From Escherichia coli (lineage in GTDB: Bacteria; Pseudomonadota; Gammaproteobacteria; Enterobacterales; Enterobacteriaceae), in assembly GCF_046105845.1 (NCBI RefSeq), contig NZ_CP151004.1: DNA of 64,000 bases, one strand, 5' to 3'. Position numbers and translations under genes: made by a program. Shown one piece after another: positions 17,255 to 35,415 of the stretch. Under the pieces are notes generated by a model, which saw nothing but the letters and a program-made list of their open reading frames with translations, was not told where the DNA came from and did no database searches. Numbering within the stretch: the first letter of the stretch is position 1; each line of letters opens with the position of its first letter.

Positions 17255-17269
17255 TTGACGACTCCTGTC

Positions 17270-18838
17270 TTAGCGTGCCGGCTGAGTAGTCGTGGAAGAC
17301 TGCTCAAAGTGATAGCGACCGGTTTTCAGGCTGCTTGGGCCGAGGCGTGCAAATTTGAACATTAAGAACAATTCTGCCACCAGGAACAGGGTATACAGGC
17401 CGCAAATCAGCACCATTGAGAAGATGAGATCGCCTGCGGTCAGTGACGAGTTCGCCACAGCTGTCGGCAGCACTTCACCGATAGCCCACGGTTGGCGGCC
17501 ATATTCAGCCACGAACCAGCCCGCTTCTACAGCAATCCACGGCAGCGGAATACCGTACAGCGCGGCGCGCAGCAGCCATTTTTTCTCGCCAATACGGTTG
17601 CGGATGACACTCCAGAAAGAGAGCGCGATGATTGCCAGCAGCAGGAAGCCACACGCCACCATGATACGGAACGCGAAGTACAGCGGCGCTACACGCGGAA
17701 TGGAGTCTTTGGTTGCCTGTTGAATCTGCGCTTCAGTCGCATCAGCCACGTTTGGCGTATAGCGTTTCAGCAGCAGACCGTAACCGAGGTCTTTCTTCAT
17801 GCTATTGAACTGGTCACGAACCGCCTGGTCGGTAGAACCAGAACGCAGTTGCTCGAGCAGAGAGTACGCCTTCATCCCGTTACGAATGCGTTCTTCATGC
17901 TGCACCATCAGTTCTTTCAGGCCGATAACTGGAGTATCCACGGAACGCGTTGCAATGATGCCCAGCGCGTAAGGGATCTGGATCGCAAATTTGTTCGTCT
18001 CCTCTTCCTGATCAGGAATGCCGAACAGAGTAAAGGCAGCAGGCGCAGGTTGCGTTTCCCACTCGGCTTCAATAGCAGCCAGTTTGGTTTTCTGCACGTC
18101 GCCCATTTCGTAACCAGATTCATCACCCAGAACAATAACAGACAGAACGGCAGCCATACCGAAGCTGGCAGCGATAGCAAAGGAGCGTTTAGCGAAGGCG
18201 AAGTCACGACCTTTCAGCATATACCATGCGCTGATACCGAGGATGAACATCGCGCCAGTCACATAACCAGACGCTACAGTGTGAACGAATTTCACCTGAG
18301 CAACCGGGTTAAGCACCAGCTCGGAGAAGCTCACCATCTCCATACGCATAGTTTCAAAGTTGAAATCGGACGCGATTGGGTTTTGCATCCAGCCGTTCGC
18401 AACCAGAATCCACAGTGCGGACAGGTTTGAACCGAGCGCCACCAGCCAGGTGACACACATATGCTGAACTTTACCCAGACGATCCCAACCGAAGAAGAAC
18501 AGACCTACAAAGGTGGATTCGAGGAAGAAGGCCATCAGACCTTCGATTGCCAGCGGCGCACCGAAGATATCCCCTACATAGTGGGAATAGTAAGACCAGT
18601 TAGTCCCGAACTGGAACTCCATGGTCAGACCGGTTGCCACACCCAGAGCGAAGTTGATACCAAACAACTTGCCCCAGAACTTGGTCATATCTTTATAAAT
18701 CTGTTTGCCGGAAAGGACGTAGACCGTTTCCATAATGGCCAGCAGGAACGCCATACCGAGCGTCAGTGGCACAAAAAGGAAGTGGTACATCGCGGTCAAG
18801 GCAAACTGTAAGCGCGACAGTTCGACTATATCTAACAT
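17270..18838 (-). CDS. cydA: cytochrome bd-I ubiquinol oxidase subunit I
   Basis: 522 aa from [28 protein letters not shown]; the ORF-track start one codon upstream is rejected. Confidence 0.97.
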
Positions 18839-19175
18839 CATGACTCCTTGCTCATCGCATGAAGACTCCGAGAGTGAACCCCGTTAGAAAGGGTCACACG
18901 CATGCCCCAATACAAAATTATTTGCTCGCCTCTATCGTTGCCATTTCATCAAAAGAGGAAAAGACAATGATAAAAAAGTTACAAATATGTTAATGAATAA
19001 ACCAAATTGATCCCGTAATTATATTACGCCGCAAAATCCTTACAATAAACAGGTTTTTATTGAGCAAATTTGCATTTTTCGACAGTGATCAATTTATAGC
19101 GAAATTGTCACGATCTCACCAATTTGATCTACGACAATTTATCGTGTTTTGCAGATTTTTTTCAAGAATTAAAAA

Positions 19176-19189
19176 TTGATTTATATCAA
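19176..19189. promoter_or_regulatory. FNR-type palindrome in the cydA upstream regulatory region
   Basis: Perfect TTGAT-N4-ATCAA (ttgatttatatcaa) about 340 bp upstream of the cydA ATG; cydAB is FNR/ArcA-controlled in E. coli. Confidence 0.5.
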
Positions 19190-19643
19190 AACCAACCAAA
19201 TATGTTAATTATGTATAAACCATAGATCATTGGTGATTTTATTGTTAATTTATTGTGAAATATTTATGCAACACAATTATTACAATGAAAAGGTATAGAT
19301 AAAAAACCAGTGTTTTATTTAACAGAACCGCCTTATCCACTTTTTATAATACCAATTGATTAGATTAGCCAATTTGTTGCTATTTTACATAACATATTTT
19401 TATCAAAGTTAATTGATTGTTGCCTTTATGAGCACCGGCCGTAAGCCCGTTATGTTATTGTTTCATTAGTAATAATCACTTAAATGTATCGATGAAACAG
19501 GTATGACTTAGCGGGAGTGATTGTTTCTGAGTGAACAGAGACCACTTTCGCCTGATAAATGAAAAATGAGCGATTTTTGCAAGTTAGTTTTTCTATAGCC
19601 GAGTACGCTCAGCGCCTCGCTTGATTACAATGAGGTTGCTGCT

Positions 19644-20588
19644 ATGAGTCCTGATAATATCAGTTCTGCTGTCAATCGCTTCTCAGGTTGGCCATCTAAT
19701 AATCCTCTAAAAACAGATAACGAATCAATGACATCACCCATGACTGTGCAGGTAATAAAGATGATTGCCGCCATCCTTGACCCACATCGGATAGTCGTTG
19801 GAATCGATACACTTTATACAACGCAGCGCGAAACATTTACCTCAGAGAGTCAACAGCTCATTGAATCAGCATTGCAAACACTTCATGTGATGAATTTAAA
19901 TAACCTGGAAACAAATCTCGATGAGGAAGGTCACTATCTGGCTTTTGGATATAACGTTGACACTCCTGACAGAATAACCGTTTCTGCTTATAATGAAAAA
20001 AAGCCTGGCTGCTATGGCCAATGTCTTTTAATACAGGATGACGAAACAGACTTATTTAACCTGATAAAAGTTAAAATTTTTGAAGCCAGGCATAATTATG
20101 TCGCTCAATTGATGAGCGATCCGGAATTTATGTTCAAATTTAGTTATAGCGCTCAACAAAATAGATTAGAACCTCATCTTCTGGTTCCCACTTATTTCCC
20201 TCTAAAAACAAACGAACCGGTTACGCAAGAGGATGTACTGTTACTTTATCGTTTCTTTAAAATGGATGGTGATTTTAATATATTAACATCAGATGAATAC
20301 ATGAGTATCATGACACCTCTGATGAAGTGTGAGCGCAGCATCCACGACCACAACAGGTATGTGACGGGCAAAGATACCCTTCTTCTGGACTATCCTCCTT
20401 CTGGTAACCAGATATATTTCCATATTTTTCCTGACGAATCAGCAACACTAGTCCTTTATTTTTCAAACAATGACATTGAATGTTTCGTCTTTGAAAGAGA
20501 TATTCCGAGCCAGTATCGCTTTTTCAAAATGTTTACCAATCTGGCACTGGTTATTGATCAGTTAACCGATGCCAATCAAATACTTTAA
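19644..20588 (+). CDS. hypothetical protein, no recognisable family (orphan island gene A)
   Basis: 314-aa ORF with a GAGG RBS 7 nt upstream; markedly AT-rich (24 G+C in the first 60 nt); Ser/Asn/Pro-rich N-terminus. Confidence 0.7.
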   Translation: MSPDNISSAVNRFSGWPSNNPLKTDNESMTSPMTVQVIKMIAAILDPHRIVVGIDTLYTTQRETFTSESQQLIESALQTLHVMNLNNLETNLDEEGHYLAFGYNVDTPDRITVSAYNEKKPGCYGQCLLIQDDETDLFNLIKVKIFEARHNYVAQLMSDPEFMFKFSYSAQQNRLEPHLLVPTYFPLKTNEPVTQEDVLLLYRFFKMDGDFNILTSDEYMSIMTPLMKCERSIHDHNRYVTGKDTLLLDYPPSGNQIYFHIFPDESATLVLYFSNNDIECFVFERDIPSQYRFFKMFTNLALVIDQLTDANQIL

Positions 20589-20668
20589 TTTTTATATATT
20601 CTCTGTGGCAAATATTGCTAAACAATGCCCGGGGATTAATTTTTATTACTCACGGAAAGATTTAAATA

Positions 20669-21091
20669 ATGATCCCATCTCAAATCTCTTTCAACACCCT
20701 TCCTGTCAATGCAACATACGCTTCAGAGACAACAGTTGACACACAAAAATTCTCTGACATCCTCTACTCAGCGGGGTGTTCCCTAAAGGATCTGGCTTAT
20801 CTGAGCAGATGTCTGGCATCAATACATCCGACTATCGCCAAAAACATTTATGAAACAGAAAATCTCAGCGATCAAAAATTACTACATATTGATTGCCGTA
20901 GTACAAATGAAATCAAGATAAATATCTTTTTTGGTCAACAACGAGAAGGATTAATTGAAATTAGTTCTGACACAGTCATTTTTTCGATACTGTCTTCATT
21001 GATTGACTCCACCATTTCTAAATTTCAACACCAAAACCCCGTTAACGGTTCTGTAAATCCTGGCCTATTGTATGAGGATTATACTGATTAA
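20669..21091 (+). CDS. hypothetical small acidic protein (orphan island gene B)
   Basis: 140-aa ORF 80 bp downstream of gene A on the same strand; AT-rich; about 16 Asp/Glu versus 9 Lys/Arg by count. Confidence 0.65.
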   Translation: MIPSQISFNTLPVNATYASETTVDTQKFSDILYSAGCSLKDLAYLSRCLASIHPTIAKNIYETENLSDQKLLHIDCRSTNEIKINIFFGQQREGLIEISSDTVIFSILSSLIDSTISKFQHQNPVNGSVNPGLLYEDYTD

Positions 21092-21638
21092 ATCCCTCCT
21101 GTCGCGAAAAATGGCCTGCGTTATTGCCAGACGTAATAAAACTTTTGATTAACGTTTCTCGTACTGGTAGCACTTTCATGTACTTTTCTTTTTTACGAAA
21201 AATCAAAAGAGCTAACAAAGGTCATAATTCGCATGAATCATTAATTATTTGTTATTTTCAACATTATTTTTACATTAAGCAGAGATGAATTGCAGTGAAA
21301 TTCGACTTAACTTTTACGAAATGCATTTACTCATGGCTAAAGCCACGTCACAAAAATGCAAATTAGAAGTTGATCACAATTATCTCAATACATCAAATCA
21401 AGTTAATTTTAAAAATTTAACATTCATGACATTAGTTGACATAACACACTGAATTAAAATGAGAATTTGGAAACACACTTTAAACAATCATTTCCCGAAA
21501 GACATTTTGAAAATAGATCAATTGCAACATTACGGTCAGATAAAGACACTCCTGTGATATTAAACCTGTGCCGTTATGAACGGCCATAAATACGGCGTGT
21601 GTAACTTATTTTACTCTCTGTCTTACAAAGGATTACCC

Positions 21639-22088
21639 ATGAAGAAAGCAACACTTGTGATTGGCGTTATTGGCGCGGACTGCCATGCAGTAGGCAATAA
21701 AGTTCTGGACCGCGTTTTTAGCAACCATGGCTTCAGAGTCATTAATCTGGGCGTAATGGTCAGCCAGGACGAATATATTGATGCTGCCATTGAAACTGGC
21801 GCTGACGCGATTGTCGTCTCCTCTATCTATGGGCATGGCGATATCGACTGTCTGGGCATGCGCGAACGCTGCATCGAGCGTGGGCTGGGTAACATCCTGC
21901 TCTATGTGGGCGGTAACCTGGTGGTCGGAAAACATGACTTCGCTGACGTGGAAACCAAATTCAAAGAGATGGGATTTGATCGCGTCTTTTCCCCAAGTCA
22001 TGACTTAGAAGATGTTTGTCAGCTGATGGCCCACGATATCAACCAACGTCATGACGTTGATACTCGTATTCTTGAAGAGGCAATCTGA
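21639..22088 (+). CDS. glmS: glutamate mutase (methylaspartate mutase) small S subunit, cobalamin-binding; clostridial GlmS/MutS, not glucosamine-6-P synthase
   Basis: 149 aa from [24 protein letters not shown] with AAGGA RBS; DxHxxG B12-binding motif; strong similarity to Clostridium MutS/GlmS as I recall it; ORF-track start at 21576 rejected. Confidence 0.9.
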
Positions 22089-23476
22089 TGCAAATCGTCT
22101 CTGTCGATATTGGATCGACGTGGACCAAAGCAGCCCTCTTCGCCCGGGAGGGGGACGCGTTAACGTTGGTTAACCACGTACTGACCCCAACCACCACCCA
22201 TCATCTGGCGAAGGGGTTTTTCTCCAGCCTGAACCTGGTGTTAAACGTAGATAATGCCCTCCCCCTGTTTAACAGCGGTGAGGTTGCATTGAAGTATTCC
22301 TCCTCTGCCAAAGGTGGGCTGGCGGTTGCCGCAATGGGATTGGTGCCTTCTATCACCCTGGAAACCGCGAAAGTAACCGCTCACTCTGCGGGTGCTAAAA
22401 TTGCGCAATATTACGCCTACAAGCTGAACCGTCGTGATATCCAGGCACTGGAAGAAACGCAGCCCGATATTCTCTTGTTCACCGGCGGCACCGATGGCGG
22501 AGAAGAAAGCTACGGACTGAATAACGCCCGTGTGTTGGCAGAATCCAAACTCGACTGCGCCATTATTTATGCCGGAAACCGGGATATTCAGGACGAGGTG
22601 CAGGAGATCCTCGGGCATAAAGACCTGACCATCGTCGACAACGTTCTGCCCGATCTTGACCATCCGAACCCTTTAGCTGCACGCCAGGCTATCTGCGACA
22701 TATTCCTTAAACGCATCGTTAAAGGGAAAGGGCTGGATGTCGTTGTTGATAAAACAGGCGAAGAACCAATGCCGACACCGTGGACAGTCTTTGAACTGGT
22801 TAAGGCAATCAGTAATGTCGATCACAGCTGGAAAGAGTTCATGCTGATCGACATGGGTGGCGCAACCACCGATGTCTATTCCGCCTGTGCCAACACGCTC
22901 TCGCCCGACACCGTTTTACACGGCGTACCGGAACCCTTCGTGAAACGGACGGTGGAAGGCGATCTGGGAATGCGCGTCTCGGCAATGGTGGTTGGTGAAA
23001 GTGCGAAAGAGTTAGTCAATGTGAATTTTGCTCAGCAACCCGCACAGCTGGACGCTTTTTATCATTACCTCCGTCATCTAGTCGCTCATCCCGACTACTT
23101 ACCCGCGAATGCAGAAGAAAAATATTTCGATACCGTCCTGGCCGGACTGTGTGTGGGTTATGCCACCGAAAGACATGCGGGCACCAAAAAAGAGGTCTGC
23201 ACCTGCGTCGGCAATGTCGATTTACAGATGGGACGTGACCTGACAACCGTGCGTAAAGTCGTCGGATCCGGCGGATGGCTCTCGCGTGCCAGTCAGTTCG
23301 ATATGCATCACTGGTTGAAATACCGCGAGTTAAACGACGACGGTAAACGCATTCTCTTACCGACCGAATTTGAATATTACCGCGATTCCCGGGGGCTATT
23401 ACCACTGCTGGCAAACGTCGCCAGAGTCGATCCGCTGGCCGCCGCGCGCACCAGTATTCAATGCTTAACCCTATAA
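22088..23476 (+). CDS. glmL: glutamate mutase-associated protein GlmL/MutL (putative mutase reactivase/chaperone)
   Basis: 462 aa; start overlaps the glmS stop (TGATG); N-terminus IVSVDIGSTWTKAALF is an ASKHA-like ATPase fold motif; conserved position between the S and E subunit genes. Confidence 0.85.
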   Translation: MQIVSVDIGSTWTKAALFAREGDALTLVNHVLTPTTTHHLAKGFFSSLNLVLNVDNALPLFNSGEVALKYSSSAKGGLAVAAMGLVPSITLETAKVTAHSAGAKIAQYYAYKLNRRDIQALEETQPDILLFTGGTDGGEESYGLNNARVLAESKLDCAIIYAGNRDIQDEVQEILGHKDLTIVDNVLPDLDHPNPLAARQAICDIFLKRIVKGKGLDVVVDKTGEEPMPTPWTVFELVKAISNVDHSWKEFMLIDMGGATTDVYSACANTLSPDTVLHGVPEPFVKRTVEGDLGMRVSAMVVGESAKELVNVNFAQQPAQLDAFYHYLRHLVAHPDYLPANAEEKYFDTVLAGLCVGYATERHAGTKKEVCTCVGNVDLQMGRDLTTVRKVVGSGGWLSRASQFDMHHWLKYRELNDDGKRILLPTEFEYYRDSRGLLPLLANVARVDPLAAARTSIQCLTL

Positions 23477-23494
23477 CAATTAAGGCTGCAATCA

Positions 23495-24940
23495 ATGGAA
23501 CTTCGAAATAAGAAATTAACCCATGACGAATTCATGACCGAGCGGCAACAGGTACTGAAAACCTGGGAAACCGGCAAGGATGTTGAAAACTTTGAAGATA
23601 GCGTTAAATACCAACAAACCATTCCTGAGCATAAACGCTTCTCTCTTGCGCTGTTGAAAGCAGACAAGGAAGGTAAAACCCTTAGCCAACCGCGCGCAGG
23701 TGTGGCGCTGATGGACGAACACATCGAACTACTGAAAACACTACAAGAAGAGTGCGATCTGCTGCCGAGCACTATCGATGCATATACCCGTCTGAATCGG
23801 TACGAAGAAGCGGCTGTAGGGATTAAAAAATCCATCGAAGCCGGAACCTCTAAACTGAACGGTTTGCCGGTAGTTAACCATGGCGTCGCAGCTTGCCGTC
23901 GCCTCACCGAAGCCCTGCAAAAACCGCTACAGATCCGCCACGGCACGCCAGATGCGCGTCTGCTGGCTGAAATCTCGATGGCCAGCGGCTTTACCAGTTA
24001 TGAAGGCGGCGGCATTTCCTACAATATTCCGTATGCCAAGCGCGTAACGCTGGAAAAATCGATCCGCGACTGGCAGTACTGCGACCGTTTAATGGGGATG
24101 TATGAAGAACACGGGATCCGCATCAACCGCGAACCGTTTGGCCCACTAACGGGTACGCTGATCCCGCCGTTTATCTCGCACTCTATCGCGATAATCGAAG
24201 GATTGCTGGCACTGGAACAGGGTGTGAAATCTATCACCGTTGGTTATGGCCAAGTCGGCAGCCTGACGCAGGATGTTGCGGCGATCCAGTCTCTGCGTGA
24301 ACTTGCACACGAATATTTTCAGAGCTATGGCTATACCGACTATGAATTGAGTACCGTGTTTCACCAGTGGATGGGCGGCTTTCCGGAAGACGAATCGAAA
24401 GCGTTCGCTATTATCTCCTGGGGCGCAGCCGTCGCGGGGATGTCTGGTGCCACCAAAGTCATCACCAAAAGTCCGCACGAAGCCTGGGGAATCCCGACTG
24501 CCGCTGCCAACATTCAGGGGCTGAAAGCCTCCCGCCAGATGCTCAACATGGTCAATGAGCAGAAATTCCCGCCGTGCCCTGCGGTTGAACTGGAAATTGA
24601 ACTGATTAAGAGCGAGGTTCGCGCGGTACTGAATAAAGTGTTCGAACTGGGTAATGGTGATATTGCGCGCGGTACGGTGCTGGCATTTGAAGCGGGCGTA
24701 CTGGATGTGCCGTTTGCGCCAGCCGCCTGCAACGCGGGCAAAATTCTTCCGGTCCGTGACAACACCGGCGCGATACGCGTACTGGAAGCCGGAGCCGTTC
24801 CATTGCCAAAAGATATTCTCGACCTCCACCACGATTACGTTGCGGAACGCGCACGCTTTGAAGGACGCCAACCGACATTCCAGATGGTTGTAGATGACAT
24901 CAATGCTGTATCCCACAGTAAATTAATAGGAAGACCATAA
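23495..24940 (+). CDS. glmE: glutamate mutase (methylaspartate mutase) large E subunit
   Basis: 481 aa; long collinear similarity to Clostridium GlmE/MutE (MELRNKKLT...QPRAGVALMDEHIELL...HQWMGGFPEDESKAF...). Confidence 0.93.
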   Translation: MELRNKKLTHDEFMTERQQVLKTWETGKDVENFEDSVKYQQTIPEHKRFSLALLKADKEGKTLSQPRAGVALMDEHIELLKTLQEECDLLPSTIDAYTRLNRYEEAAVGIKKSIEAGTSKLNGLPVVNHGVAACRRLTEALQKPLQIRHGTPDARLLAEISMASGFTSYEGGGISYNIPYAKRVTLEKSIRDWQYCDRLMGMYEEHGIRINREPFGPLTGTLIPPFISHSIAIIEGLLALEQGVKSITVGYGQVGSLTQDVAAIQSLRELAHEYFQSYGYTDYELSTVFHQWMGGFPEDESKAFAIISWGAAVAGMSGATKVITKSPHEAWGIPTAAANIQGLKASRQMLNMVNEQKFPPCPAVELEIELIKSEVRAVLNKVFELGNGDIARGTVLAFEAGVLDVPFAPAACNAGKILPVRDNTGAIRVLEAGAVPLPKDILDLHHDYVAERARFEGRQPTFQMVVDDINAVSHSKLIGRP

Positions 24941-26181
24941 TGAAAATAAAACAGGCCCTGTTCACCGCTGGCTATTCCTCATTCTATTTCGATGACCAGC
25001 AGGCGATAAAAAACGGAGCGGGTCACGACGGCTTTTTTTATACCGGGGAGCCAGTAACACAGGGGTTTAACGCCGTACGTCAGGCCGGGGAGTGCGTATC
25101 GGTACAGTTGATTCTGGAAAACGGCGCGGTCGCCGTAGGTGACTGTGCTGCCGTACAGTATTCCGGGGCAGGTGGTCGCGATCCACTGTTCCTCGCGGAG
25201 CACTTTATTCCGTTCCTCAACGACCATATCAAGCCATTACTGGTAGGCCGCGATGTGGATGCTTTCCTGCCGAATGCCCGTTTCTTCGACAAATTGCGTA
25301 TTGACGGCAACTTGCTGCATACCGCCGTGCGCTACGGATTATCACAGGCGCTGCTTGATGCTACCGCGCTGGCAACCGGCCGTCTGAAAACTGAAGTGGT
25401 CTGTGATGAATGGCAGTTGCCACGCGTGGCGGAATCCATTCCATTATTTGGTCAGAGCGGCGACGATCGATATATCGCCGTCGATAAGATGATCCTTAAG
25501 GGCATCGACGTGCTGCCCCATGCGCTGATTAATAACGTCGAAGAGAAGCTGGGCTTTAAAGGTGAAAAACTGCGCGAATATGTCCGCTGGCTGTCGGATC
25601 GTATTCTGAGCAAGCGCACCAGCGCACGCTACCACCCTACCCTGCACATCGATGTATACGGCACTATCGGTCTGATCTTCGATATGGATCCGCTTCGCTG
25701 TGCGCAATACATCGCCAGCCTGGAAAAAGAAGCGCAAGGCCTGCCGCTCTACATTGAAGGGCCGGTCGATGCCGGTAACAAGCCCGATCAAATTCGCCTG
25801 CTGTCCGCGATTACCAAAGAGCTGACGCGCCTCGGTTCCGGCGTGAAAATTGTGGCCGATGAATGGTGTAACACCTACCAGGATATTGTTGATTTCACTG
25901 ATGCCGCCAGTTGCCACATGGTGCAAATCAAAACCCCGGATCTGGGCAGTATTCACAACATCGTCGATGCGGTTCTTTACTGCAACAGCCACAGCATGGA
26001 AGCGTACCAGGGCGGCACCTGCAATGAAACTGATGTCAGTGCCCGCACCTGTGTCCACGTCGCCCTTGCCGCTCGCCCTATGCGTATGCTGGTAAAGCCA
26101 GGGATGGGCTTTGACGAAGGCCTCGATATCGTCTTCAACGAAATGAATCGTACTATCGCGCTGTTGCAGGCTAAGGATTAA
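24940..26181 (+). CDS. mal: 3-methylaspartate ammonia-lyase (beta-methylaspartase)
   Basis: 413 aa; start overlaps the glmE stop; strong similarity to Clostridium MAL (AGHDGF.YTG, CAAVQYSGAGGRDPLFLA, ADEWCNT, HMVQIKTPDLG); enolase-superfamily fold. Confidence 0.93.
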   Translation: MKIKQALFTAGYSSFYFDDQQAIKNGAGHDGFFYTGEPVTQGFNAVRQAGECVSVQLILENGAVAVGDCAAVQYSGAGGRDPLFLAEHFIPFLNDHIKPLLVGRDVDAFLPNARFFDKLRIDGNLLHTAVRYGLSQALLDATALATGRLKTEVVCDEWQLPRVAESIPLFGQSGDDRYIAVDKMILKGIDVLPHALINNVEEKLGFKGEKLREYVRWLSDRILSKRTSARYHPTLHIDVYGTIGLIFDMDPLRCAQYIASLEKEAQGLPLYIEGPVDAGNKPDQIRLLSAITKELTRLGSGVKIVADEWCNTYQDIVDFTDAASCHMVQIKTPDLGSIHNIVDAVLYCNSHSMEAYQGGTCNETDVSARTCVHVALAARPMRMLVKPGMGFDEGLDIVFNEMNRTIALLQAKD

Positions 26182-26184
26182 CAA

Positions 26185-27555
26185 ATGGCTCGTTCTTTTA
26201 AAGTCTTATCGCCAACGGCAATCCTCGGGTATGGATTCCCGGAAGAGAGCTTCCGCAAAGCGATGGCAGAATCGCCCGATCTGATCGCCGTTGATGCAGG
26301 CTCTTCCGATCCTGGCCCCCACTACCTCGGAGCGGGCAAACCGTTTACCGATCGCGCAGGGGTCAAGCGCGATCTGCGCTATATGATCACCGCAGGCGTG
26401 CAAAATAATATACCGGTGGTGATCGGAACGGCCGGCGGTTCTGGTGCCGCTCCACACCTGGAGTGGTGCCGAGAAATAATTCATGAGATTGCCCGGGAAG
26501 AGCACCTCTCGTTCTCGATGGCGCTGATCCCGGCAGACGTTGACAAAGCCATCGTCCACCAGGCGCTGGATAACGGCAAAATCACGGCGCTGGATTTTGT
26601 CCCGCCGTTAACCCACGACGCGATTGACGAAAGTACGTATATCGTCGCGCAAATGGGCATCGAACCCTTCCAGCAGGCGCTGAAAGAAGGCGCGCAAGTG
26701 GTGCTGGGCGGGCGCGCTTACGACCCGGCCTGCTTTGCTGCGCTACCGATCATGCAAGGCTTTGATGAAGGTCTGGCGCTGCATTGTGGGAAAATCCTTG
26801 AATGCGCGGCAATCGCCGCAACGCCCGGCTCAGGCTCTGACTGTGCGATGGGCATCATTGATGACAACGGCTTTACGCTGAAGACATTTAATCCGAAGCG
26901 TAAATTTACCGAAACGTCAGCAGCTGCACACACACTGTATGAGAAATCCGATCCCTACTTCCTGCCTGGACCTGGCGGCGTGTTGAACCTGAAAGACTGC
27001 ACATTTAAAGCGGTCAATGACGGCGAAGTGTACGTCAGCGGTTCTAAGCATGAAGAAACGCCGTATGCCCTGAAACTGGAAGGTGCACGACGGGTGGGCT
27101 TCCGCTGTCTGACCATCGCAGGAACGCGCGACCCGATCATGATCGCCGGGATCGATAAAATCATCGATGAAGTCAAAACCAGCGTTTCGCGTAACCTGTC
27201 GCTCGACGATGACAGCATTCACATCAATTTCCACCTGTACGGCAAAAACGGGGTGATGGGCGACCATGAACCGATGCAAACTGCCGGGCATGAGCTGGGG
27301 ATTGTCCTAGATGTAGTTGCGCCGACCCAGGAAATTGCCAACAGCGTTTGCTCGCTGGTGCGCTCTACTATGCTGCACTACGGCTATGAAAACCGCATCG
27401 CTACCGCAGGCAACCTGGCGTTCCCGTTCTCCCCTTCTGATATCCAGGGCGGGCCGGTATACGAATTTTCCATATATCACCTGATTGAAGCCAACGACGC
27501 TCTGCGTTTTGATTTCCATATTGAACAGGTGACGCCAGAAGGAGTTCAGGCATGA
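26185..27555 (+). CDS. uncharacterised protein, possibly DUF1446/AtuA-like family (assignment from memory, unverified)
   Basis: 456-aa ORF 3 nt after the mal stop in the same operon; Gly-rich motif GTAGGSGAAP; no enzymatic family recognised with certainty. Confidence 0.75.
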   Translation: MARSFKVLSPTAILGYGFPEESFRKAMAESPDLIAVDAGSSDPGPHYLGAGKPFTDRAGVKRDLRYMITAGVQNNIPVVIGTAGGSGAAPHLEWCREIIHEIAREEHLSFSMALIPADVDKAIVHQALDNGKITALDFVPPLTHDAIDESTYIVAQMGIEPFQQALKEGAQVVLGGRAYDPACFAALPIMQGFDEGLALHCGKILECAAIAATPGSGSDCAMGIIDDNGFTLKTFNPKRKFTETSAAAHTLYEKSDPYFLPGPGGVLNLKDCTFKAVNDGEVYVSGSKHEETPYALKLEGARRVGFRCLTIAGTRDPIMIAGIDKIIDEVKTSVSRNLSLDDDSIHINFHLYGKNGVMGDHEPMQTAGHELGIVLDVVAPTQEIANSVCSLVRSTMLHYGYENRIATAGNLAFPFSPSDIQGGPVYEFSIYHLIEANDALRFDFHIEQVTPEGVQA

Positions 27556-27869
27556 AACAGTCAATTGTCTCACTGGCGCAAGTCATTCGTTCGAAAAATG
27601 CCGGACCTTACGAACTGGTTTTAGATATTTTATTTAAAACCAAAGAAAACTATGAGCGAGTTAAATCATCAGGGCAATTAACCCCAGAACTGATCGCGCG
27701 CTTATATCATGTTGAACCTGACTTTATTCATCGTATTGTCTGGTTTGATCCTTCTAACGCAGTAAAAATCGTCATGCCACGAGATATTATCTCCGGGAAT
27801 GTAGGTGACAATGATGTCTATGGTGCACAGCAACATGCACCTTTATTAAATATGAGTTTCGATTTGTAA
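27552..27869 (+). CDS. small uncharacterised protein, possibly DUF4387-like partner of the preceding gene
   Basis: 105-aa ORF whose ATG overlaps the upstream stop (ATGA), indicating translational coupling. Confidence 0.7.
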   Translation: MKQSIVSLAQVIRSKNAGPYELVLDILFKTKENYERVKSSGQLTPELIARLYHVEPDFIHRIVWFDPSNAVKIVMPRDIISGNVGDNDVYGAQQHAPLLNMSFDL

Positions 27870-28029
27870 AAATCCGAATACTTTTAGCCAACTGACATCC
27901 CGTCACTTATTGCAGTTCAACACTTCAGCTATTTGTAAGGTTGTAATAGCAGGTAGATGCCTGAATCTCTATTCAGGCATCTACTTCTCCTGATTCTGAT
28001 TTATCGCCGTGCACCTGATGGAGGAAAAA

Positions 28030-29310
28030 ATGAAGAAAATAAGTTTAACCACGATGATTCTTTTGGCGCTGGTACTTGGAATGATTATCGGCGTAGTGCT
28101 CAATAACACTGCTTCACCGGAAACCGCAAAACTCTATGCGCAAGAAATATCGATATTCACGACGATTTTCTTACGACTGATAAAAATGATTATCGCTCCG
28201 TTAGTGGTCTCTACCCTGGTGGTAGGTATAGCTAAAATGGGCGATGCCAAAGCCCTTGGTCGTATTTTTTCTAAAACACTCTTTTTATTTATTTGCGCCT
28301 CATTGCTGTCAATTGCCTTAGGCTTGATAACAGTAAATTTCTTCATGCCAGGCACAGGAATTAATTTTGTTGCACACGGAGTCGAAACCACCGGAGTGGT
28401 CGCGTCAGAACCCTTTACGCTAAAAGTATTTATTTCGCATGCTTTCCCCACCAGCATTGTCGATGCCATGGCGCACAATGAAATTTTGCAAATCGTGGTG
28501 TTCTCAATTTTCCTCGGCTGTAGCCTGACGGCGATTGGCGAGAAAGGCAGCGCCATCGTTCACGCCTTAGATTCGCTGGCACATGCCATGTTAAAGCTCA
28601 CTGGCTACGTCATGCTCTTCGCTCCCCTGACCGTATTCGCTGCTATTTCAGCATTGATTGCTGAACGAGGACTGGCAGTTATGGTGAGCGCCGGGATCTT
28701 TATGGGTGAATTTTATTTCACCATGTTATTACTTTGGGTGCTGCTTATCGGTCTGGCCATCGTTTATGTCGGCCCCTGCATCAGACGCCTGACCCGCGCC
28801 CTTTCGGAACCCGCCCTGCTGGCATTTACCACATCCAGTTCTGAAGCGGCTTTTCCGGGAACGCTTGAAAAACTGGAGCAATTTGGCGTTTCCCCCAAAA
28901 TTGCCAGCTTTGTCTTACCCATTGGCTACTCATTTAATCTCGTTGGATCAATGGCCTACTGCTCCTTCGCCACAGTTTTCATCGCCCAGGCCTGCAATAT
29001 CCATTTATCCATCGGTGAGCAAATCACCATGCTGTTGATCCTGATGTTGACCTCGAAAGGAATGGCTGGCGTACCACGCGCCTCAATGGTGGTTATCGCC
29101 GCCACGCTCAACCAGTTCAATATTCCGGAAGCGGGGCTGATCTTGCTGATGGGCGTTGATCCGTTCCTTGATATGGGGCGTTCCGCGACAAACGTCATGA
29201 GCAACGCAATGGGCGCTGCGATGGTGAGTCGGTGGGAAGGCGAACATTTCGGCGAGGGCTGTCGGGGTAAAGCATTAAAACCCAATGAATCGAACGTTGC
29301 TCTGCCCTGA
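28030..29310 (+). CDS. dicarboxylate/amino acid:cation symporter (GltP/DctA family), probable glutamate or C4/C5-dicarboxylate importer
   Basis: 426 aa from MKKISLTTMILLALVLGMIIG with GGAGG RBS 6 nt upstream; multi-TM profile typical of the DAACS family; ORF-track GTG start at 28009 rejected. Confidence 0.85.
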   Translation: MKKISLTTMILLALVLGMIIGVVLNNTASPETAKLYAQEISIFTTIFLRLIKMIIAPLVVSTLVVGIAKMGDAKALGRIFSKTLFLFICASLLSIALGLITVNFFMPGTGINFVAHGVETTGVVASEPFTLKVFISHAFPTSIVDAMAHNEILQIVVFSIFLGCSLTAIGEKGSAIVHALDSLAHAMLKLTGYVMLFAPLTVFAAISALIAERGLAVMVSAGIFMGEFYFTMLLLWVLLIGLAIVYVGPCIRRLTRALSEPALLAFTTSSSEAAFPGTLEKLEQFGVSPKIASFVLPIGYSFNLVGSMAYCSFATVFIAQACNIHLSIGEQITMLLILMLTSKGMAGVPRASMVVIAATLNQFNIPEAGLILLMGVDPFLDMGRSATNVMSNAMGAAMVSRWEGEHFGEGCRGKALKPNESNVALP

Positions 29311-29417
29311 GGGGGATCTTAAGCAATCAGAAGCCAATGACTACGCATTTTTATAAGCCGGATCATGAAGTTAGACGGCAATTAAGTAACACTAACGTTT
29401 AAGGTGAAAAGTGAAAT

Positions 29418-31070
29418 ATGTCAAAACCATTTATCTGGCAAGAACCGTTTCTACAAAATAAAGACGGTACAGAATATACATTAATTAGCGATCAGCATAT
29501 TACAGTAACGGAATTAGACGGCGAAGAAGTGATAAAAATCGCTCCTGAAGCATTAACGCTGCTTGCCCGGCAGGCATTTTATGAAGCCTCTTTTTTCTTA
29601 CGTTCCGCTCATTTGCAACAGGTCGCCAGCATTCTTAACGATCCGCAGGCCAGTAGTAATGATAAATACGTTGCGTTGCAGTTATTACGTAATGCTGAAG
29701 TCTCAGCAAAAGGGGTATTACCCAACTGTCAGGATACCGGCACCGCAACTATTGTTGCCAGTAAAGGGCAACAGATATGGACGGGAGGTAACGACGCTGA
29801 AGCCTTAAGCAAAGGCATTTACAGTACTTTCCAGGAAAATAATCTGCGCTTTTCACAAAATGCGCCGCTGGATATGTATACCGAAGTCAATACGCAAACC
29901 AATCTCCCGGCGCAGATTGATATCAGCGCTGTCGCTGGTAATGAGTACCATTTTCTCTGTGTTAATAAAGGGGGCGGCTCCGCCAATAAAGCCGCGCTTT
30001 ATCAGGAAACCAAATCCCTATTGCAACCAGAAAAACTGACCGCATTTTTAATCGAAAAAATGAAATCGCTGGGCACCGCTGCCTGCCCGCCTTACCACAT
30101 CGCCTTTGCCGTCGGAGGGCTTTCAGCCGATCAAACCTTAAAAGTTGCCAAGCTGGCCTCAACGAAATATTACGACAATTTGCCCACCAGCGGAAACGAG
30201 CAGGGACAAGCATTCCGTGATATTGAGCTGGAAAAAGTGTTGCTCGAGGCCAGTCAGCAATTTGGTATTGGTGCGCAATTTGGGGGTAAATATTTCGCTC
30301 ATGATATTCGCGTCATTCGTCTGCCGCGTCACGGTGGCTCTTGCCCGATAGCTATGGCGCTCTCCTGTTCTGCCGATCGCAATATCAAAGCAAAAATTAA
30401 CAAGCACGGTATCTGGCTGGAAAAACTCGAACACAATCCGGGGCAATATATTCCAGCCTCACTGCGGGAAGAAAACCACGCGCAACATGTACAACTGGAT
30501 CTAAACCGTCCGTTGCGTGACGTGATGCAGGATCTCGCCAGATTACCGGTAGGCACCCGCGTGTCGTTAAATGGTCCCATCGTAGTGGCGCGCGATATCG
30601 CCCACGCCAAAATAAAAGCGCGGCTGGATAGCGGCGAACCGATGCCGGATTACCTGAAGCATCATATTGTCTATTACGCTGGCCCGGCGAAAACACCTGA
30701 TAACATGGCCTGCGGTTCACTGGGTCCAACCACGGGCGGTCGAATGGACGGTTATGTCGATACCTTCCAGGCGGCTGGCGGCAGCCTGGTGATGTTATCG
30801 AAAGGTAACCGCAGCCAGCAGGTCACCGATGCCTGTCACAAACATGGCGGCTTCAATCTGGGAAGTATTGGCGGTGCAGCTGCGTTACTGGCGCAAGAAT
30901 ATGTCAAAAGTCTGCGTTGCCTGGAATACCCGGAGCTGGGTATGGAAGCGGTGTGGATGATGGAAGTGGAAAATCTGCCCGCATTCATTCTGGTAGATGA
31001 TAAAGGCAATAATTTCTTTAGTCAGTTTGAACAGCAACACCGCTGCGCCAGTTGCCCTGCGGGACATTAA
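29418..31070 (+). CDS. fumD: class I (Fe-S, FumA/FumB-type) fumarate hydratase paralog, probable mesaconase/fumarase
   Basis: 550 aa, collinear with E. coli FumA/FumB throughout (PFIWQEPF..., CQDTGTA, GGGSANK, CPPYHIA, HGGSCP) but clearly divergent; sits in the methylaspartate operon. Confidence 0.9.
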
Positions 31071-31079
31071 GGAAAATGA

Positions 31080-31682
31080 ATGGAAGCGCGAATTTCAACT
31101 GAACGGCATGTGCAGCGCCAGCAGAAATTGAAGGAACAGGTCGATACGCGCGTCGCGGCGGCGATAGAGAAAAAAGGGATCTTGATTGTTTTCACCGGCA
31201 ACGGCAAAGGGAAATCCACTGCCGCGTTTGGTACTGTAACGCGCGCGGTGGGTCATGGCAAAACGGTGGGGGTTGCGCAGTACATCAAGGGGCAATGGGA
31301 CAACGGCGAATACAACCTTCTCCAGCCGCTGGGGGTTGAGTTTCATATTATGGGAACCGGTTTTACCTGGGAGACACAGAACCGGCAAGCGGATATCGAC
31401 GCGGCGAAAGAGGTCTGGTCGGAAAGCAAACGGATGCTGGCTGACAAGCGTTACGACTTAGTGGTGCTTGATGAGCTGACCTATATGCTGGCTTACCATT
31501 ATCTGGATACCGAAGAAGTGATCGCTTCTCTGCAAAACCGCCCGGCACAACAAAGTGTCATTGTCACCGGACGCGGTTGCCACAGTCAGATATTAAAAAT
31601 GGCGGATACGGTCAGCGAAATCCGCCCCGTCAAACATGCTTTTGATAACGGCATTCAGGCCCAGCCGGGTATCGACTGGTAA
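31080..31682 (+). CDS. cob(I)yrinic acid a,c-diamide / cob(I)alamin adenosyltransferase (BtuR/CobA/CobO family)
   Basis: 200 aa; GNGKGKSTAAFG P-loop and collinear similarity to E. coli BtuR; AAGGAAA RBS. Confidence 0.9.
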   Translation: MEARISTERHVQRQQKLKEQVDTRVAAAIEKKGILIVFTGNGKGKSTAAFGTVTRAVGHGKTVGVAQYIKGQWDNGEYNLLQPLGVEFHIMGTGFTWETQNRQADIDAAKEVWSESKRMLADKRYDLVVLDELTYMLAYHYLDTEEVIASLQNRPAQQSVIVTGRGCHSQILKMADTVSEIRPVKHAFDNGIQAQPGIDW

Positions 31683-31685
31683 TAA

Positions 31686-31717
31686 CTGCGCCTGGCATCC
31701 CGCCAGGCGCAGGTTTT
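31686..31717. terminator. bidirectional hairpin terminator between the operon end and the convergent LysR gene
   Basis: ctgcgcctgg-catcccg-ccaggcgcag stem-loop followed by tttt; overlaps the LysR stop codon on the other strand. Confidence 0.55.
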
Positions 31718-32621
31718 ACATCTCCTGCGGTACAACCGATTTCGCCAGCAACCATTCACGAAATTGCTGCAAGTGCGGTGAGTCAGACTTCTCTTCCTGC
31801 CACGTCATAATAAAACGATTACCGGTACGAATAGGCACATCACAGGGGATCACCATATCGCCACTATCCAAATCATGTTGAATAGCGAAACGTGGTAACA
31901 GCGCCACGCCGAGATTCGAGCGCACGGCGGCAATCAGCATTGAAAGCAAATCGAAACGTGGTCCGTTGTTGACCAGCGGACTGCTAACGCCAGATAAGGC
32001 AAACCACTCTTCCCAGCCAGTAATACGGGTACTTTGATGCAGAAGTGGTAACTCTGTAAGCAGTTCTGCCACTGACAGTTTTTGATCGGACATTGTAAGC
32101 AAACTGCCGCTGCATACCGGCAAAATCTCCTCTTCAAAGAGATATTCTACTTCCGCCCAGGGCGCGCAAAAATTTTCGCGCATAATGACAGCATCGTACT
32201 CCCGATTAAGAAAATCGCCGTTATTAGCTAAAGAGTGAATATTAACAATAATATCGGAATGTAACTTTGTGAATTCATGTAAATTTGGGATTAACCAGTG
32301 GGTACTAAACGTAGGATTCACGGCAAGTTCAATAACCTTAACCGTAGGCTGCCAGGTCATAATGGTATTGGTATCGCGTTCCAGCTTATTTAATGTTTCT
32401 TTTACTATCCCCAGGTAATACTTCCCTGCATCATTAAGAAAAATACGTTTTTTAGAGTGTGAAAATAACGGAGTATGTAAAAATTCCTCCAGCGCACTCA
32501 CTTGTCTGAATACTGCACTTTGGGTCAACGCTAACTCCTCTGCCGCTCTGGTATAACTTTCATGACGTGCGACGACCTCAAAAGTCACCAGCAGCTCCGT
32601 TTTAGGTATTTTTCCTCGCAT
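31716..32621 (-). CDS. LysR-family transcriptional regulator
   Basis: 301 aa; N-terminal wHTH (ELLVTFEVVARHESYTRAAEELALTQSAVFRQVSALEEFL) plus substrate-binding domain; convergent with the operon. Confidence 0.9.
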   Translation of the reverse strand: MRGKIPKTELLVTFEVVARHESYTRAAEELALTQSAVFRQVSALEEFLHTPLFSHSKKRIFLNDAGKYYLGIVKETLNKLERDTNTIMTWQPTVKVIELAVNPTFSTHWLIPNLHEFTKLHSDIIVNIHSLANNGDFLNREYDAVIMRENFCAPWAEVEYLFEEEILPVCSGSLLTMSDQKLSVAELLTELPLLHQSTRITGWEEWFALSGVSSPLVNNGPRFDLLSMLIAAVRSNLGVALLPRFAIQHDLDSGDMVIPCDVPIRTGNRFIMTWQEEKSDSPHLQQFREWLLAKSVVPQEM

Positions 32622-33185
32622 AATGCCGTCCCTTAAAAATAGTTTAAACCATCAAAAATACATTACTTATTACGAAGTAATGGTAACCAAAGCAGCAATA
32701 AATAATTTATAAGAATCATGATTGACATTTATAACCCAGTAAGCCTGGCGTGACAAATATCTTAATCAGATAATAATAATCCGAAAAGCACAGCGCCTTT
32801 CGAATTATCCGGAATCACATTAAGTGAAAATTATTAAATTGATATCATTTATCATATCTGTGGATATTATGATAAACAATCAACAAAGATTTTATTTTTG
32901 ATTTATAGCATATCCCTCTAAGAATTTTTGCGATGCTGCAATATCCGGGGTAAAGACCCGATCCTGGCTGACAAATGGCACGACTTGACGATAAGCGGTG
33001 AACATCGCTTTTGTTGATTTACTTAACGCTACGGTCAAACGCTGGGAAGCCAGTGCATCAGGTAACGATTCGAAATTCGCCGTCGTTCTTATTCGTGGCT
33101 TGCGGTCGGTTGCGGCAATCCACAGTGGCTGTGGTCATGCAGTCAAGCCAGCGGTCAGATTTCGACCGTGGTTAACATTTAAGGC

Positions 33186-33286
33186 ATAAAAAAGGCCATC
33201 ATATGATGGCCAACCATGTCGAAACCGACAGCCCTTCGCCATTCCTGTAGAGGGAAGCGGCGAGGGCTATTTCTTATTACAGATAT
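33186..33286 (-). ncRNA. sdhX: probable SdhX (RybD) sRNA from the sucD 3' UTR with intrinsic terminator
   Basis: About 100 nt between the sucD stop and a ggccatcat/atgatggcc hairpin followed by a U-run on the minus strand; positional equivalence to the K-12 sucD 3'-UTR sRNA; sequence identity not verified. Confidence 0.45.
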
Positions 33287-34156
33287 TTATTTCAGAACAG
33301 TTTTCAGTGCTTCACCGATATCCGCCAGGCTGCGAACGGTTTTCACGCCTGCGGCTTCCAGAGCAGCGAATTTCTCATCCGCAGTCCCTTTCCCACCGGC
33401 AATGATCGCACCCGCGTGGCCCATACGTTTGCCTTTCGGCGCAGTCACACCAGCGATGTAACCCACAACAGGCTTGGTAACGTGCTCTTTGATGTACGCA
33501 GCCGCTTCTTCTTCAGCGCTACCGCCGATCTCACCGATCATCACGATCGCTTCGGTCTGCGGATCTTTTTCGAACATTTCGAGGATGTCGATAAAGTTAG
33601 AGCCAGGGATCGGGTCGCCGCCGATACCGACACAGGTCGACTGACCGAAACCGTAATCCGTGGTCTGTTTAACCGCTTCATAGGTCAGTGTACCGGAACG
33701 GGAAACGATACCCACTTTACCCGGTTTGTGAATGTGACCCGGCTGGATACCGATTTTGCATTCACCCGGAGTGATTACGCCCGGACAGTTCGGGCCGATC
33801 ATACGAACGCCTGCTTCATCCAGTTTCACTTTCACGGTCAGCATATCCAGCGTCGGGATGCCTTCAGTGATGGTGATAATCAGTTTGATGCCTGCATCGA
33901 TGGCTTCCAGAATGGAGTCTTTGCAGAACGGTGCTGGTACGTAGATAACAGAAGCGGTAGCGCCAGTAGCAGCAACAGCTTCACGAACGGTGTTGAACAC
34001 CGGCAGGCCGAGGTGGGTGGTGCCGCCTTTACCTGGGGTTACGCCGCCAACCATTTTAGTGCCGTATGCAATAGCCTGTTCTGAGTGGAAAGTCCCCTGG
34101 CTACCGGTAAAGCCCTGGCAGATAACCTTGGTGTTTTTATCAATTAAAATGGACAT
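33287..34156 (-). CDS. sucD: succinyl-CoA synthetase alpha subunit
   Basis: 289 aa; matches E. coli SucD. Confidence 0.97.
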
Positions 34157-35322
34157 TATTTCCCCTCCACTGCGGCAACAACCTGCTGAGCTGCATCCGT
34201 CAGACCTTTTGCTGCAATAATATTCAGGCCGCTGTCAGCCAGTTTCTTCGCGCCGAGTTCGGCGTTGTTACCTTCCAGACGTACCACGACCGGTACGTTA
34301 ACACCCACTTCCGCTACCGCGCCGATGATACCGTCAGCGATCAGGTCGCAACGAACGATACCGCCGAAGATGTTAACCAGAACGGCTTTCACTTTGTCGT
34401 CAGAGAGGATGATTTTGAACGCTTCGGTTACACGTTCTTTGGTTGCGCCGCCGCCAACGTCAAGGAAGTTAGCTGGTTCGCCGCCGTGCAGTTTAACGAT
34501 GTCCATCGTACCCATCGCCAGACCTGCGCCGTTAACCATACAACCGATGTTACCGTCCAGCGCAACGTAGTTCAGTTCCCACTGTGCAGCCTGTGCTTCA
34601 CGTGGATCTTCCTGCGACTGGTCACGCATTTCGCGCAGATCAGGCTGGCGGAACAGTGCGTTGCCATCAGCGCCCAGTTTGCCGTCGAGGCAAATCAGAT
34701 CGCCCTGTTTGGTGATGACCAGCGGGTTGATTTCGATCAGCGCCAGGTCGCGCTCCAGGAAAATGGTCGCCAGGCCCATGAAGATTTTGGTGAACTGCTG
34801 AACCAGTTTACCTTCCAGACCCAGTTTGAACGCCAGCTCGCGTCCCTGATACGGCATCGGGCCAGTCAGCGGATCAAGCGCAACTTTGTGGATCAGGTGC
34901 GGAGTTTCTTCCGCCACTTTTTCGATTTCCACGCCGCCTTCGGTGGAGGCCATAAAGACCACACGACGGGAACTACGGTCAACAACGGCACCGAGATACA
35001 GCTCTTTAGCGATATCGGTCGCTGCTTCAACCAGAATCTGGTTAACCGGTTGGCCATTGGCATCTGTTTGATACGTTACCAGACGCTTGCCCAGCCAGTT
35101 TTCTGCAAAAGCACGGATGTCTTCTTTGCTGTTTACAACTTTCACACCGCCCGCTTTACCGCGGCCACCAGCGTGAACCTGACATTTCACTACCCACGGA
35201 CCGGCACCGATTTTTGAAGCGGCTTCTTCTGCTTCGCGCGGAGTAGTACAGGCATAACCCACCGGTGCTGGTAAGCCATAGCGGGCAAAAAGTTGTTTTG
35301 CCTGATATTCATGTAAGTTCAT
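34156..35322 (-). CDS. sucC: succinyl-CoA synthetase beta subunit
   Basis: 388 aa; matches E. coli SucC. Confidence 0.97.
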
Positions 35323-35415
35323 GTGTTCTGTCCATCCTTCAGTAATCGTTATCTTTTAAACCGTAGACCGACACCCTATCCACGTCGGTCTACAGTGCAG
35401 GTGAAGCTTAAACTA

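Follow-up and report, generated by a model that had tools for sequence, protein, structure and literature searches.

The methylaspartate pathway of Clostridium tetanomorphum and C. tetani, encoded by glmSLE, mal, mesAB and a citDEF-type lyase, is among the closest known relatives of a gene cluster described in 2015 from Escherichia coli O157:H7, which runs glmS-mutL-glmE-mal-DUF1446-gltP-fumD-cobA-LTTR (the last for a LysR-type transcriptional regulator) and was reported from 26.5% of the E. coli genomes and from 90.6% of those of O157:H7 (Kronen and Berg, 2015, PMC4682846). The same study demonstrated mesaconase/fumarase activity for O157:H7 FumD and left the fate of the product citramalate open. 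More recently, the cmlAB genes of Raoultella planticola (a gift from I. Berg) were used in a 2026 preprint, and their product, Cml, is reported to turn (S)-citramalate into pyruvate and acetate (bioRxiv 10.64898/2026.01.16.699985). Here we analyze a stretch of 64,000 nucleotides from E. coli (assembly GCF_046105845.1, contig NZ_CP151004.1; hereafter the window), in which a cluster of the O157:H7 kind lies between cydA and sucD. Taken together, our findings indicate that this segment is probably an enterobacterial methylaspartate-pathway cluster and an old occupant of the cydA-sucD gap that did not arrive as a mobile island.

Given that the cluster itself was already known, our additions are modest: an allele series of the gap, remnants of hut and rtcB, the association of hut with the glutamate cluster in strains of the ST648 type, and a re-labelling of one gene pair as CmlAB. 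Gene identities, synteny, allele counts and remnants were computed here and the activities of FumD and Cml are the work of others; the substrate of the transporter, control by LysR, the in vivo direction of the pathway and the order of evolutionary events are what we infer.

Gene Content and Assigned Pathway

The gap holds 12 coding sequences, as counted from the open reading frame (ORF) listing and the RefSeq annotation of strain AST215, a 99.1%-identical genome, and not ten as a first-pass annotation of this DNA had it (Table 1). Two AT-rich genes confined to Escherichia are followed by glmS-glmL-glmE-mal-cmlA-cmlB, a gltP-like gene, fumD and cobO, and by a convergent lysR. The earlier listing of two AT-rich orphans, a glutamate mutase, a methylaspartate ammonia-lyase, FumD and a LysR regulator is correct; GlmS, GlmL, GlmE, Mal, FumD and CobO were called by NCBIfam equivalog models above their curated cut-offs, and GlmS has the cobalamin-binding motif DxHxxG in the form DCHAVG. 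The mention of an equivalent cluster in O157:H7 was also correct: genes and gene order are the same as in the published cluster (PMC4682846), the nucleotides are 98.7% identical over its whole length, and nothing essential differs. The window strain belongs to another lineage (best match 99.1%), with an AT-rich module that shares 96.0% identity with the O157:H7 copy. None of the ten metabolic genes is disrupted, and their proteins are 98-100% identical to those of O157:H7 (98.5% for FumD).

The two genes directly 3' of mal, labelled AtuA family/DUF1446 and DUF4387 by RefSeq, form the same unit as cmlAB. CmlA of the window is about 91% identical to the Protein Data Bank (PDB) entry 9ERQ_A, deposited as 'Citramalate lyase, subunit A (cmlA)', over residues 1-456, its full length (E = 2e-290); CmlB matches 9ERQ_B, 'Citramalate lyase, subunit B (cmlB)' (E = 5e-57), and the pair also matches chains A and B of 9EVF, which carry the same deposited names. 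The RefSeq labels should read citramalate lyase CmlAB, a homology-based assignment for the E. coli proteins. We had considered the pair as a newly proposed citramalate-cleaving enzyme, given its tight linkage to mal even without fumD, but the PDB search returned it as already deposited CmlAB and thus not new. CmlAB is unrelated to the classical citramalate lyase of the acyl-carrier-protein-containing CitDEF type, and no citDEF-like ORF is present in 18842-33286 according to the ORF listing and the RefSeq annotation. The earlier view that the operon is poorly characterised in E. coli hence holds only for its regulation and physiological role.

How might these proteins act together? With CmlAB included, each of the four steps from glutamate through 3-methylaspartate, mesaconate and (S)-citramalate to pyruvate and acetate has an enzyme assigned to it by homology. 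We envision that the GltP/DctA-like symporter imports its presumed substrate glutamate, and that the adenosylcobalamin-dependent mutase formed by GlmS and GlmE would rearrange it into (2S,3S)-3-methylaspartate, with GlmL keeping the mutase active and CobO making its adenosylcobalamin. Mal would then take ammonia off methylaspartate to yield mesaconate, FumD would hydrate mesaconate to (S)-citramalate, and CmlAB would cover the cleaving step to pyruvate and acetate in place of a CitDEF-type enzyme. E. coli lacks de novo B12 synthesis. The four chemical steps are those of the clostridial pathway, and GlmS, GlmL, GlmE and Mal are homologous to their clostridial counterparts (56-62% identity to Firmicutes loci), whereas the mesaconase consists of one FumA-like chain and not of the two subunits of MesAB, and CmlAB stands where clostridia use CitDEF with CitCXG. 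Unlike the clostridial pathway, the window cluster has its own CobO and LysR regulator, and its host is a facultative anaerobe.

Table 1. Features of the cydA-sucD gap and its flanks in the window (bit scores are given against model cut-offs)
Feature	Position	Strand	Assignment and details
cydB and cydA	16115-18841	-	left side of the gap
cydA	17270-18841	-	core left flank; ORF listing and RefSeq annotation of the 99.1%-identical genome; 100% amino-acid identity to E. coli cydA
cydA upstream region	18842-19479		left boundary of the variable segment (blastn junctions)
AT-rich module	19480-21232	+	about 1.75 kb, GC about 28-38%; between the cydA and glmS upstream regions
orf314	19644-20588	+	314 aa; relatives only in Escherichia, at least 65% identity
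orf140	20669-21091	+	140 aa; found in E. coli and Shigella only
Conserved 22-nt element	21504-21525	+	ATTTTGAAAATAGATCAATTGC; 114-135 nt upstream of glmS
glmS	21639-22088	+	B12-binding small subunit of glutamate mutase; NF002612, 252 bits against 110; TIGR01501 above cut-off
glmL (mutL)	22088-23476	+	glutamate mutase accessory/reactivating protein; NF040745, 508 against 475
glmE	23495-24940	+	catalytic subunit of glutamate mutase; TIGR01503, 864 against 390
mal	24940-26181	+	methylaspartate ammonia-lyase; TIGR01502, 544 bits against 286
cmlA	26185-27555	+	RefSeq AtuA family/DUF1446; PF07287; assigned as large subunit of citramalate lyase
cmlB	27552-27869	+	RefSeq DUF4387; assigned as small subunit of citramalate lyase; 4-nt overlap with cmlA
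Hairpin	27953-27984	+	perfect 14-bp stem (inverted repeat), 4-nt loop; within the 160 nt that separate cmlB from the transporter gene
Dicarboxylate/amino acid:cation symporter (DAACS) gene	28030-29310	+	DAACS family, GltP/DctA-like; below both the GltP and DctA cut-offs
fumD	29418-31070	+	class I fumarase paralogue, mesaconase; NF011921, 1282 against 1060
cobO	31080-31682	+	ATP:cob(I)alamin adenosyltransferase; TIGR00708, 247 against 168
Hairpin terminator	31686-31712	+	strong; 11 base pairs, 9 of them G-C; between convergent cobO and lysR
lysR	31716-32621	-	LysR-family regulator, GcvA-like, under the family cut-off
hutH-like ammonia-lyase remnants	32895-33083	-	C-terminal 46 aa at 89%, residues 378-397 at 90% (tblastn, ST648 protein)
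rtcB remnants	33087-33186	+	residues 375-398 at 75%, last 15 aa at 87%; abut the sucD terminator
sucD 3' untranslated region (UTR) and terminator	33184-33286	-	right boundary of the variable segment; 98.3% identical to K-12
sucD	33287-34156	-	core right flank; ORF listing, RefSeq annotation, tblastn synteny table
sucD and sucC	33287-35322	-	right side of the gap

The Cluster as a Probable Old Occupant of the Gap

In K-12-type genomes (L004), the same gap holds mngB-mngA-mngR, as the first-pass annotation stated and blastn confirms; this locus, for a phosphotransferase system and a hydrolase acting on 2-O-alpha-mannosyl-D-glycerate, is unrelated in function to the glutamate cluster. Both flanks are conserved core genes. 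Homology between the window and K-12 stops at 19214 and starts again at 33184, and homology to other Escherichia alleles stops at 19479, which delimits the variable segment to 19215/19480-33183. The earlier extent of 18839-33000 is right in setting the region apart from K-12 and slightly off at both ends. Upstream of cydA, sequence conservation extends to about 19189-19217 when other genera and K-12 are compared, and as far as 19479 among Escherichia alleles. At the other end, position 33184 is the first base past the mngR stop codon in K-12 and the T-tail end of the sucD terminator (33194-33211), and the right boundary is identical in the two alleles. The sucD 3' UTR and terminator are presumably also the location of SdhX, judging from its position in the literature; an Rfam scan of 18000-34500 returned no B12 riboswitch, SdhX or any other family.

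Did the segment arrive as an island? The first-pass annotation read it as a 14-kb metabolic island, horizontally acquired by an unclear route, that replaced mngR-mngAB in an E. coli lineage. Such a history would accommodate the absence of the cluster from 79% of complete E. coli genomes, K-12 included, the AT-rich left end and the sharp boundaries against K-12. We nevertheless consider it very improbable, on several lines of evidence. As already noted in that annotation, the segment shows no sign of mobility: none of its 12 coding sequences is an integrase or transposase (ORF listing, RefSeq annotation, NCBIfam), no insertion sequence (IS) or att-like direct repeat was found at its boundaries, and the closest tRNA gene, at 9709, is about 9.5 kb away. 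Base composition, suggested as a test for an island, is host-like over most of the cluster: the window averages 50.8% GC, and eight of the ten metabolic genes lie at 49-55%. GC is low only in the stretch 19000-21500 (28-38%; orf314 and orf140 have 37-38%), in cmlB (39%) and in lysR (45%).

The same arrangement also occurs elsewhere. A Mal scan over one genome per species, followed by a tblastn synteny table, placed the cluster in the cydA-sucD gap at 20 or more loci of other genera (at least five genera) and in other Escherichia species. These comprise Citrobacter amalonaticus, C. werkmanii, C. youngae, C. braakii, C. portucalensis and C. gillenii; Klebsiella oxytoca, K. grimontii, K. michiganensis and K. 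spallanzanii of the oxytoca group; Salmonella enterica subsp. arizonae, with sucD also adjacent in subsp. diarizonae; and Pseudescherichia vulneris, Escherichia whittamii and further Escherichia clades. Protein identity to the window falls with phylogenetic distance, from 98-100% in E. coli to mostly 86-98% in other Escherichia, 80-94% in Citrobacter, Salmonella and Klebsiella and 64-83% in Yersinia and Morganella. Synonymous divergence (dS) within E. coli is equal for the cluster (0.01-0.09) and for the flanking cydAB and sucCD (0.01-0.08). Metagenome-assembled genome contigs labelled Collinsella sp. (L005) and Citrobacter sp. (L006) carry cluster proteins 96-100% identical to those of E. coli, and most likely represent E. 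coli contigs that were wrongly binned.

The allele series within E. coli points the same way. Among 5426 complete E. coli genomes, the metabolic part (21600-33183) is present in 1138 (21%), nearly always as a single chromosomal copy, mngR is found in about 71%, and about 10% have neither cluster. Besides the allele of the window, the gap may hold mngBAR only (K-12 type), a tetratricopeptide-repeat (TPR) gene together with mngBAR (L003), the TPR gene only (L002), the glutamate cluster, rtcB and mngBAR in tandem (strain E21, L090), or the glutamate cluster with a six-gene histidine-utilisation (hut) module and rtcB (strain ST648, L094, NZ_CP008697.1; 144 genomes); further forms are IS-generated deletions, as in enteropathogenic E. 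coli (EPEC) E2348/69. A lysR-rtcB-mngB junction occurs in 145 genomes, and each of two independent two-part queries found both halves in 130 genomes. To say that the cluster stands in place of mng was therefore too strong: both are present in tandem in about 145 genomes and are neighbors in C. amalonaticus and C. sedlakii, so the two are not strict alternatives.

Finally, the window itself carries deletion scars. It is colinear with ST648 over 16000-33029 at 98.5% identity and then 9.1 kb shorter, and the spacer between lysR and sucD keeps fragments of a hutH-like gene and of rtcB, which makes the window allele a deletion derivative of a longer arrangement. The last 39 nucleotides of rtcB are present also in window-type genomes, and E. 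whittamii has different, independent remnants of the same hut and rtcB modules. Synteny in other taxa, flank-like dS and the deletion scars together make K-12 better described as an allele without the cluster than the window as one with an insertion.

We thus favor a scenario whereby the cluster is an old occupant of the gap, common to Citrobacter, the Klebsiella oxytoca group, Salmonella arizonae and diarizonae, Pseudescherichia and other Escherichia. The Escherichia gap would once also have had hut and rtcB next to lysR, both lost by deletion from the window allele, whereas other E. coli lineages would have dropped the glutamate cluster and either retained or acquired mngBAR, the TPR gene or nothing at all. 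Homologous recombination through the conserved cyd and suc flanks is the probable means by which alleles spread, an exchange that would need no integrase and would leave none to be seen. If so, the cydA-sucD gap is to be read as an old, modular and multi-allelic region, composed of the glutamate cluster, hut, rtcB, mng, the TPR gene and the AT-rich genes, and not as an acquired island.

Several observations sit less easily with this scenario. Compared with E. whittamii and Salmonella, dS of the cluster is two to four times that of the flanks (against E. whittamii, 0.42-0.93 and 0.10-0.18). The excess fits weak codon bias of the cluster beside the highly expressed cyd and suc genes, yet it allows for old interspecies recombination, which may have occurred. 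In C. amalonaticus and C. sedlakii, mngBAR also lies in the gap, to the left of glmS, so that the order of mng and the glutamate cluster differs from that in the E. coli tandem; moreover, the cydA-mngB spacer of K-12 weakly resembles that of Citrobacter. Because of this order and this likeness, the mng-only allele may itself be old and not the product of simple loss. We also rejected K-12 as a simple deletion derivative of the tandem allele, from which the 470-bp cydA-mngB spacer of K-12 is absent.

The same observations could be taken to mean that the cluster is old in the family and the E. coli copy a comparatively recent import from other Escherichia or enterobacterial species, brought in by homologous recombination through the cyd/suc flanks and then shuffled among phylogroups, with presence and absence reflecting allele exchange and not an ancestral cluster that was lost again and again. 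The three- to fourfold excess of dS against E. whittamii, the modular combinations (either the glutamate cluster or the TPR gene on the left, with or without mng on the right) and the genus-specific order of mng would all suit such an import. We regard it as unlikely, as the nearest copies outside E. coli are in Escherichia species at mostly 86-98% amino-acid identity, orf314 and the hut/rtcB remnants are common only to Escherichia, and the diversity of the cluster within E. coli is as deep as that of core genes.

A number of rearranged alleles are worth recording. The locus of a derivative of EPEC O127:H6 E2348/69 (L088 5046-10322) reads cydA-orf314-orf140-glmS-ISEc13-mngA'-mngR-sucD and looks like an IS-mediated deletion, from glmL to mngA, of the tandem allele. 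In strain 23CRST031 (L089 5161-7985), IS903B and IS1A stand in place of almost the whole cluster, with a lysR fragment left. A few cluster matches were tallied as plasmid-borne; one of these may be NZ_CP195869.1, a 76-kb record that covers the rightmost 64% of the region, together with sucD and sucC, and looks like a chromosomal fragment.

hut, rtcB and a Possible Amino-Acid Catabolic Supercluster

In ST648 the hut module (L094 3288-11028) lies between lysR and rtcB and comprises hutU (frameshifted in ST648), a permease gene, hutD, hutI, hutG and a gene for a hutH-like ammonia-lyase, whose product scores 277 bits against a HutH model cut-off of 539. An RtcB-family (RNA ligase-like) gene is found by the sucD terminator in tandem and hut-bearing alleles (L090 25191-26588; L094 1121-2518). 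The end product of hut, glutamate, is the substrate of the adjoining pathway. A combination of Hut with the methylaspartate pathway is known from gut anaerobes as the oxidative histidine pathway (bioRxiv 10.64898/2026.06.22.733842), and ST648-type E. coli has hut directly beside the glutamate cluster. In contrast to that system, hut has been deleted from the window except for its remnants, and the putative ST648 hutH-like gene, known from its sequence, falls under the HutH cut-off.

From a broader perspective, the cydA-sucD gap of Escherichia might be the eroding remnant of a single amino-acid catabolic supercluster, composed of hut (from histidine to glutamate), the B12-dependent methylaspartate pathway and its own adenosyltransferase and retained in full by about 2.7% of E. 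coli genomes (ST648-like), with two Escherichia-only genes under purifying selection and without detectable relatives (orf314 and orf140) by the cydA control region. We put this forward tentatively, and would sooner expect it to need revision than to hold in full. If it were true, ST648-like strains could ferment histidine and glutamate anaerobically with B12, a capacity that E. coli is generally said to lack.

What Might the Pathway Do in E. coli?

About one in five E. coli strains, among them nearly all O157:H7, encode a full B12-dependent route that leads from glutamate to pyruvate, acetate and ammonia. Glutamate is abundant in the gut, and the cluster is relevant to gut colonization and competition. 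Pathway activity in E. coli is putative, and some of the available evidence speaks against it: the O157:H7 strain studied gave no growth on glutamate, no Mal activity and no detectable expression (PMC4682846). Our literature search did not find a primary CmlAB paper, and the assignment draws on the names given by PDB depositors and on the use of the enzyme in one preprint.

Conceivably, then, the operon does not serve energy fermentation of glutamate but the uptake and degradation of C5-dicarboxylates (mesaconate, methylaspartate, citramalate) or the secretion of mesaconate or citramalate as an effector, or it is largely silent and decaying in E. coli. Secretion of citramalate was proposed by Kronen and Berg themselves (PMC4682846), the transporter reaches neither the GltP nor the DctA cut-off, and the cluster has been lost repeatedly, all of which, together with the O157:H7 phenotype, would fit. 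We find these alternatives doubtful in view of a full encoded route to pyruvate and acetate with all genes intact, and of low ratios of non-synonymous (dN) to synonymous divergence against O157:H7 (dN 0.000-0.009, dS 0.02-0.07). The adjoining hut module in 144 genomes, with glutamate as its end product, and the recognized coupling of Hut to the methylaspartate pathway in gut anaerobes (bioRxiv 10.64898/2026.06.22.733842) likewise favor glutamate fermentation. ST648-type strains, with hut beside the glutamate cluster, are a natural place to seek the conditions that induce the operon.

Predicted Regulation

How might the operon be controlled? Across 31 loci assigned to Escherichia, Citrobacter, Salmonella, Klebsiella and Raoultella, the 21-nt core of the conserved element upstream of glmS does not vary. 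Most genera read TATTTTGAAAATA here, a T-N11-A dyad, and the window reads CATTTTGAAAATA. Dyads of the T-N11-A form are the kind of site bound by LysR-type regulators. The element is hence a candidate LysR-type operator, and we propose that LysR probably controls the operon 21639-31682 through this T-N11-A-like box. Two points count against the proposal: the box is predicted from sequence conservation, and lysR is convergent with the operon and not divergent, which is atypical for an operon under LysR-type control. The operon closes at the terminator between cobO and lysR, and the hairpin that follows cmlB, ahead of the transporter gene, might act as an internal attenuator or mark a site of RNA processing. 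An FNR or CRP site upstream of glmS was rejected by eye, as the spacing of the element is TGA-N7-TCA and not the N6 of FNR and CRP sites. A sigma-70 promoter scan was uninformative, with 19 sites against 23 expected from shuffled sequence.

Gene content around these elements varies between taxa. S. arizonae and K. grimontii have a gene for a PocR-like regulator of the AraC family between lysR and sucD (L041 18090-18992; L015 19231-19935), which E. coli lacks. Most Citrobacter, Klebsiella and Enterobacter loci have a glutaminase-like gene between the transporter gene and fumD (e.g., L011 14554-15690), absent from the E. coli cluster; Kronen and Berg noted this gene before fumD in other genera (PMC4682846). 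In E. whittamii and the E1V33 clade, the transporter gene and cobO are missing in addition.

The AT-Rich Module

The AT-rich module is the only clearly foreign-looking part of the segment. The AT-rich left part of the segment (19480-21600) is present in 1138 of the 5426 complete E. coli genomes, always alongside the cluster and again nearly always as one chromosomal copy, and a diverged copy of the module exists in another Escherichia clade (L008); E. whittamii, the E1V33 clade and every other genus compared lack the module. Neither orf314 nor orf140 has a match in Pfam, NCBIfam, PADLOC or PHROG, homology searches returned no relatives outside Escherichia, and a profile search with orf314 against 1.84 billion representative proteins retrieved its own fragments only. 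Profile-profile comparison gave no relationship between the two. With dN/dS of about 0.5 for orf314 and about 0.2 for orf140, both are probably real genes under weak constraint, although orf314 is a pseudogene with an internal stop in one strain. AlphaFold2 models reached a predicted local distance difference test (pLDDT) score of 46 for orf314 and 39 for orf140, too poor for a fold search.

Two further alleles touch this module. L091 (Logan SRR11658232, 9001-11683) comes from an Escherichia-like organism whose left (tol-cyd) flank is about 89% identical in nucleotides; here cydA is followed by an orf314 homologue (65% identity), a 258-aa ORF without a Pfam hit, and sucD, and there is no glutamate cluster. 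The TPR cassette (L002 4169-5284; L003 4382-5575), encoding a tetratricopeptide repeat protein of 371-397 aa, has its left breakpoint at the equivalent of window position 19479, exactly that of the AT-rich module.

Variation in the Surrounding Sequence

Outside the gap, the sucC-sucB spacer of K-12 (L004 11333-11527) is about 195 bp longer than that of the window (35372-35385); the extra sequence partly matches window repeats at 3738-3770 and 56999-57037 and looks like a repetitive extragenic palindromic (REP)-type element. The lysT-valT tRNA array differs in copy number between strains, with seven genes (five tRNA-Lys, two tRNA-Val) at 8808-9709 of the window and two tRNA-Lys genes only in ST648 (L094 34177-34361).

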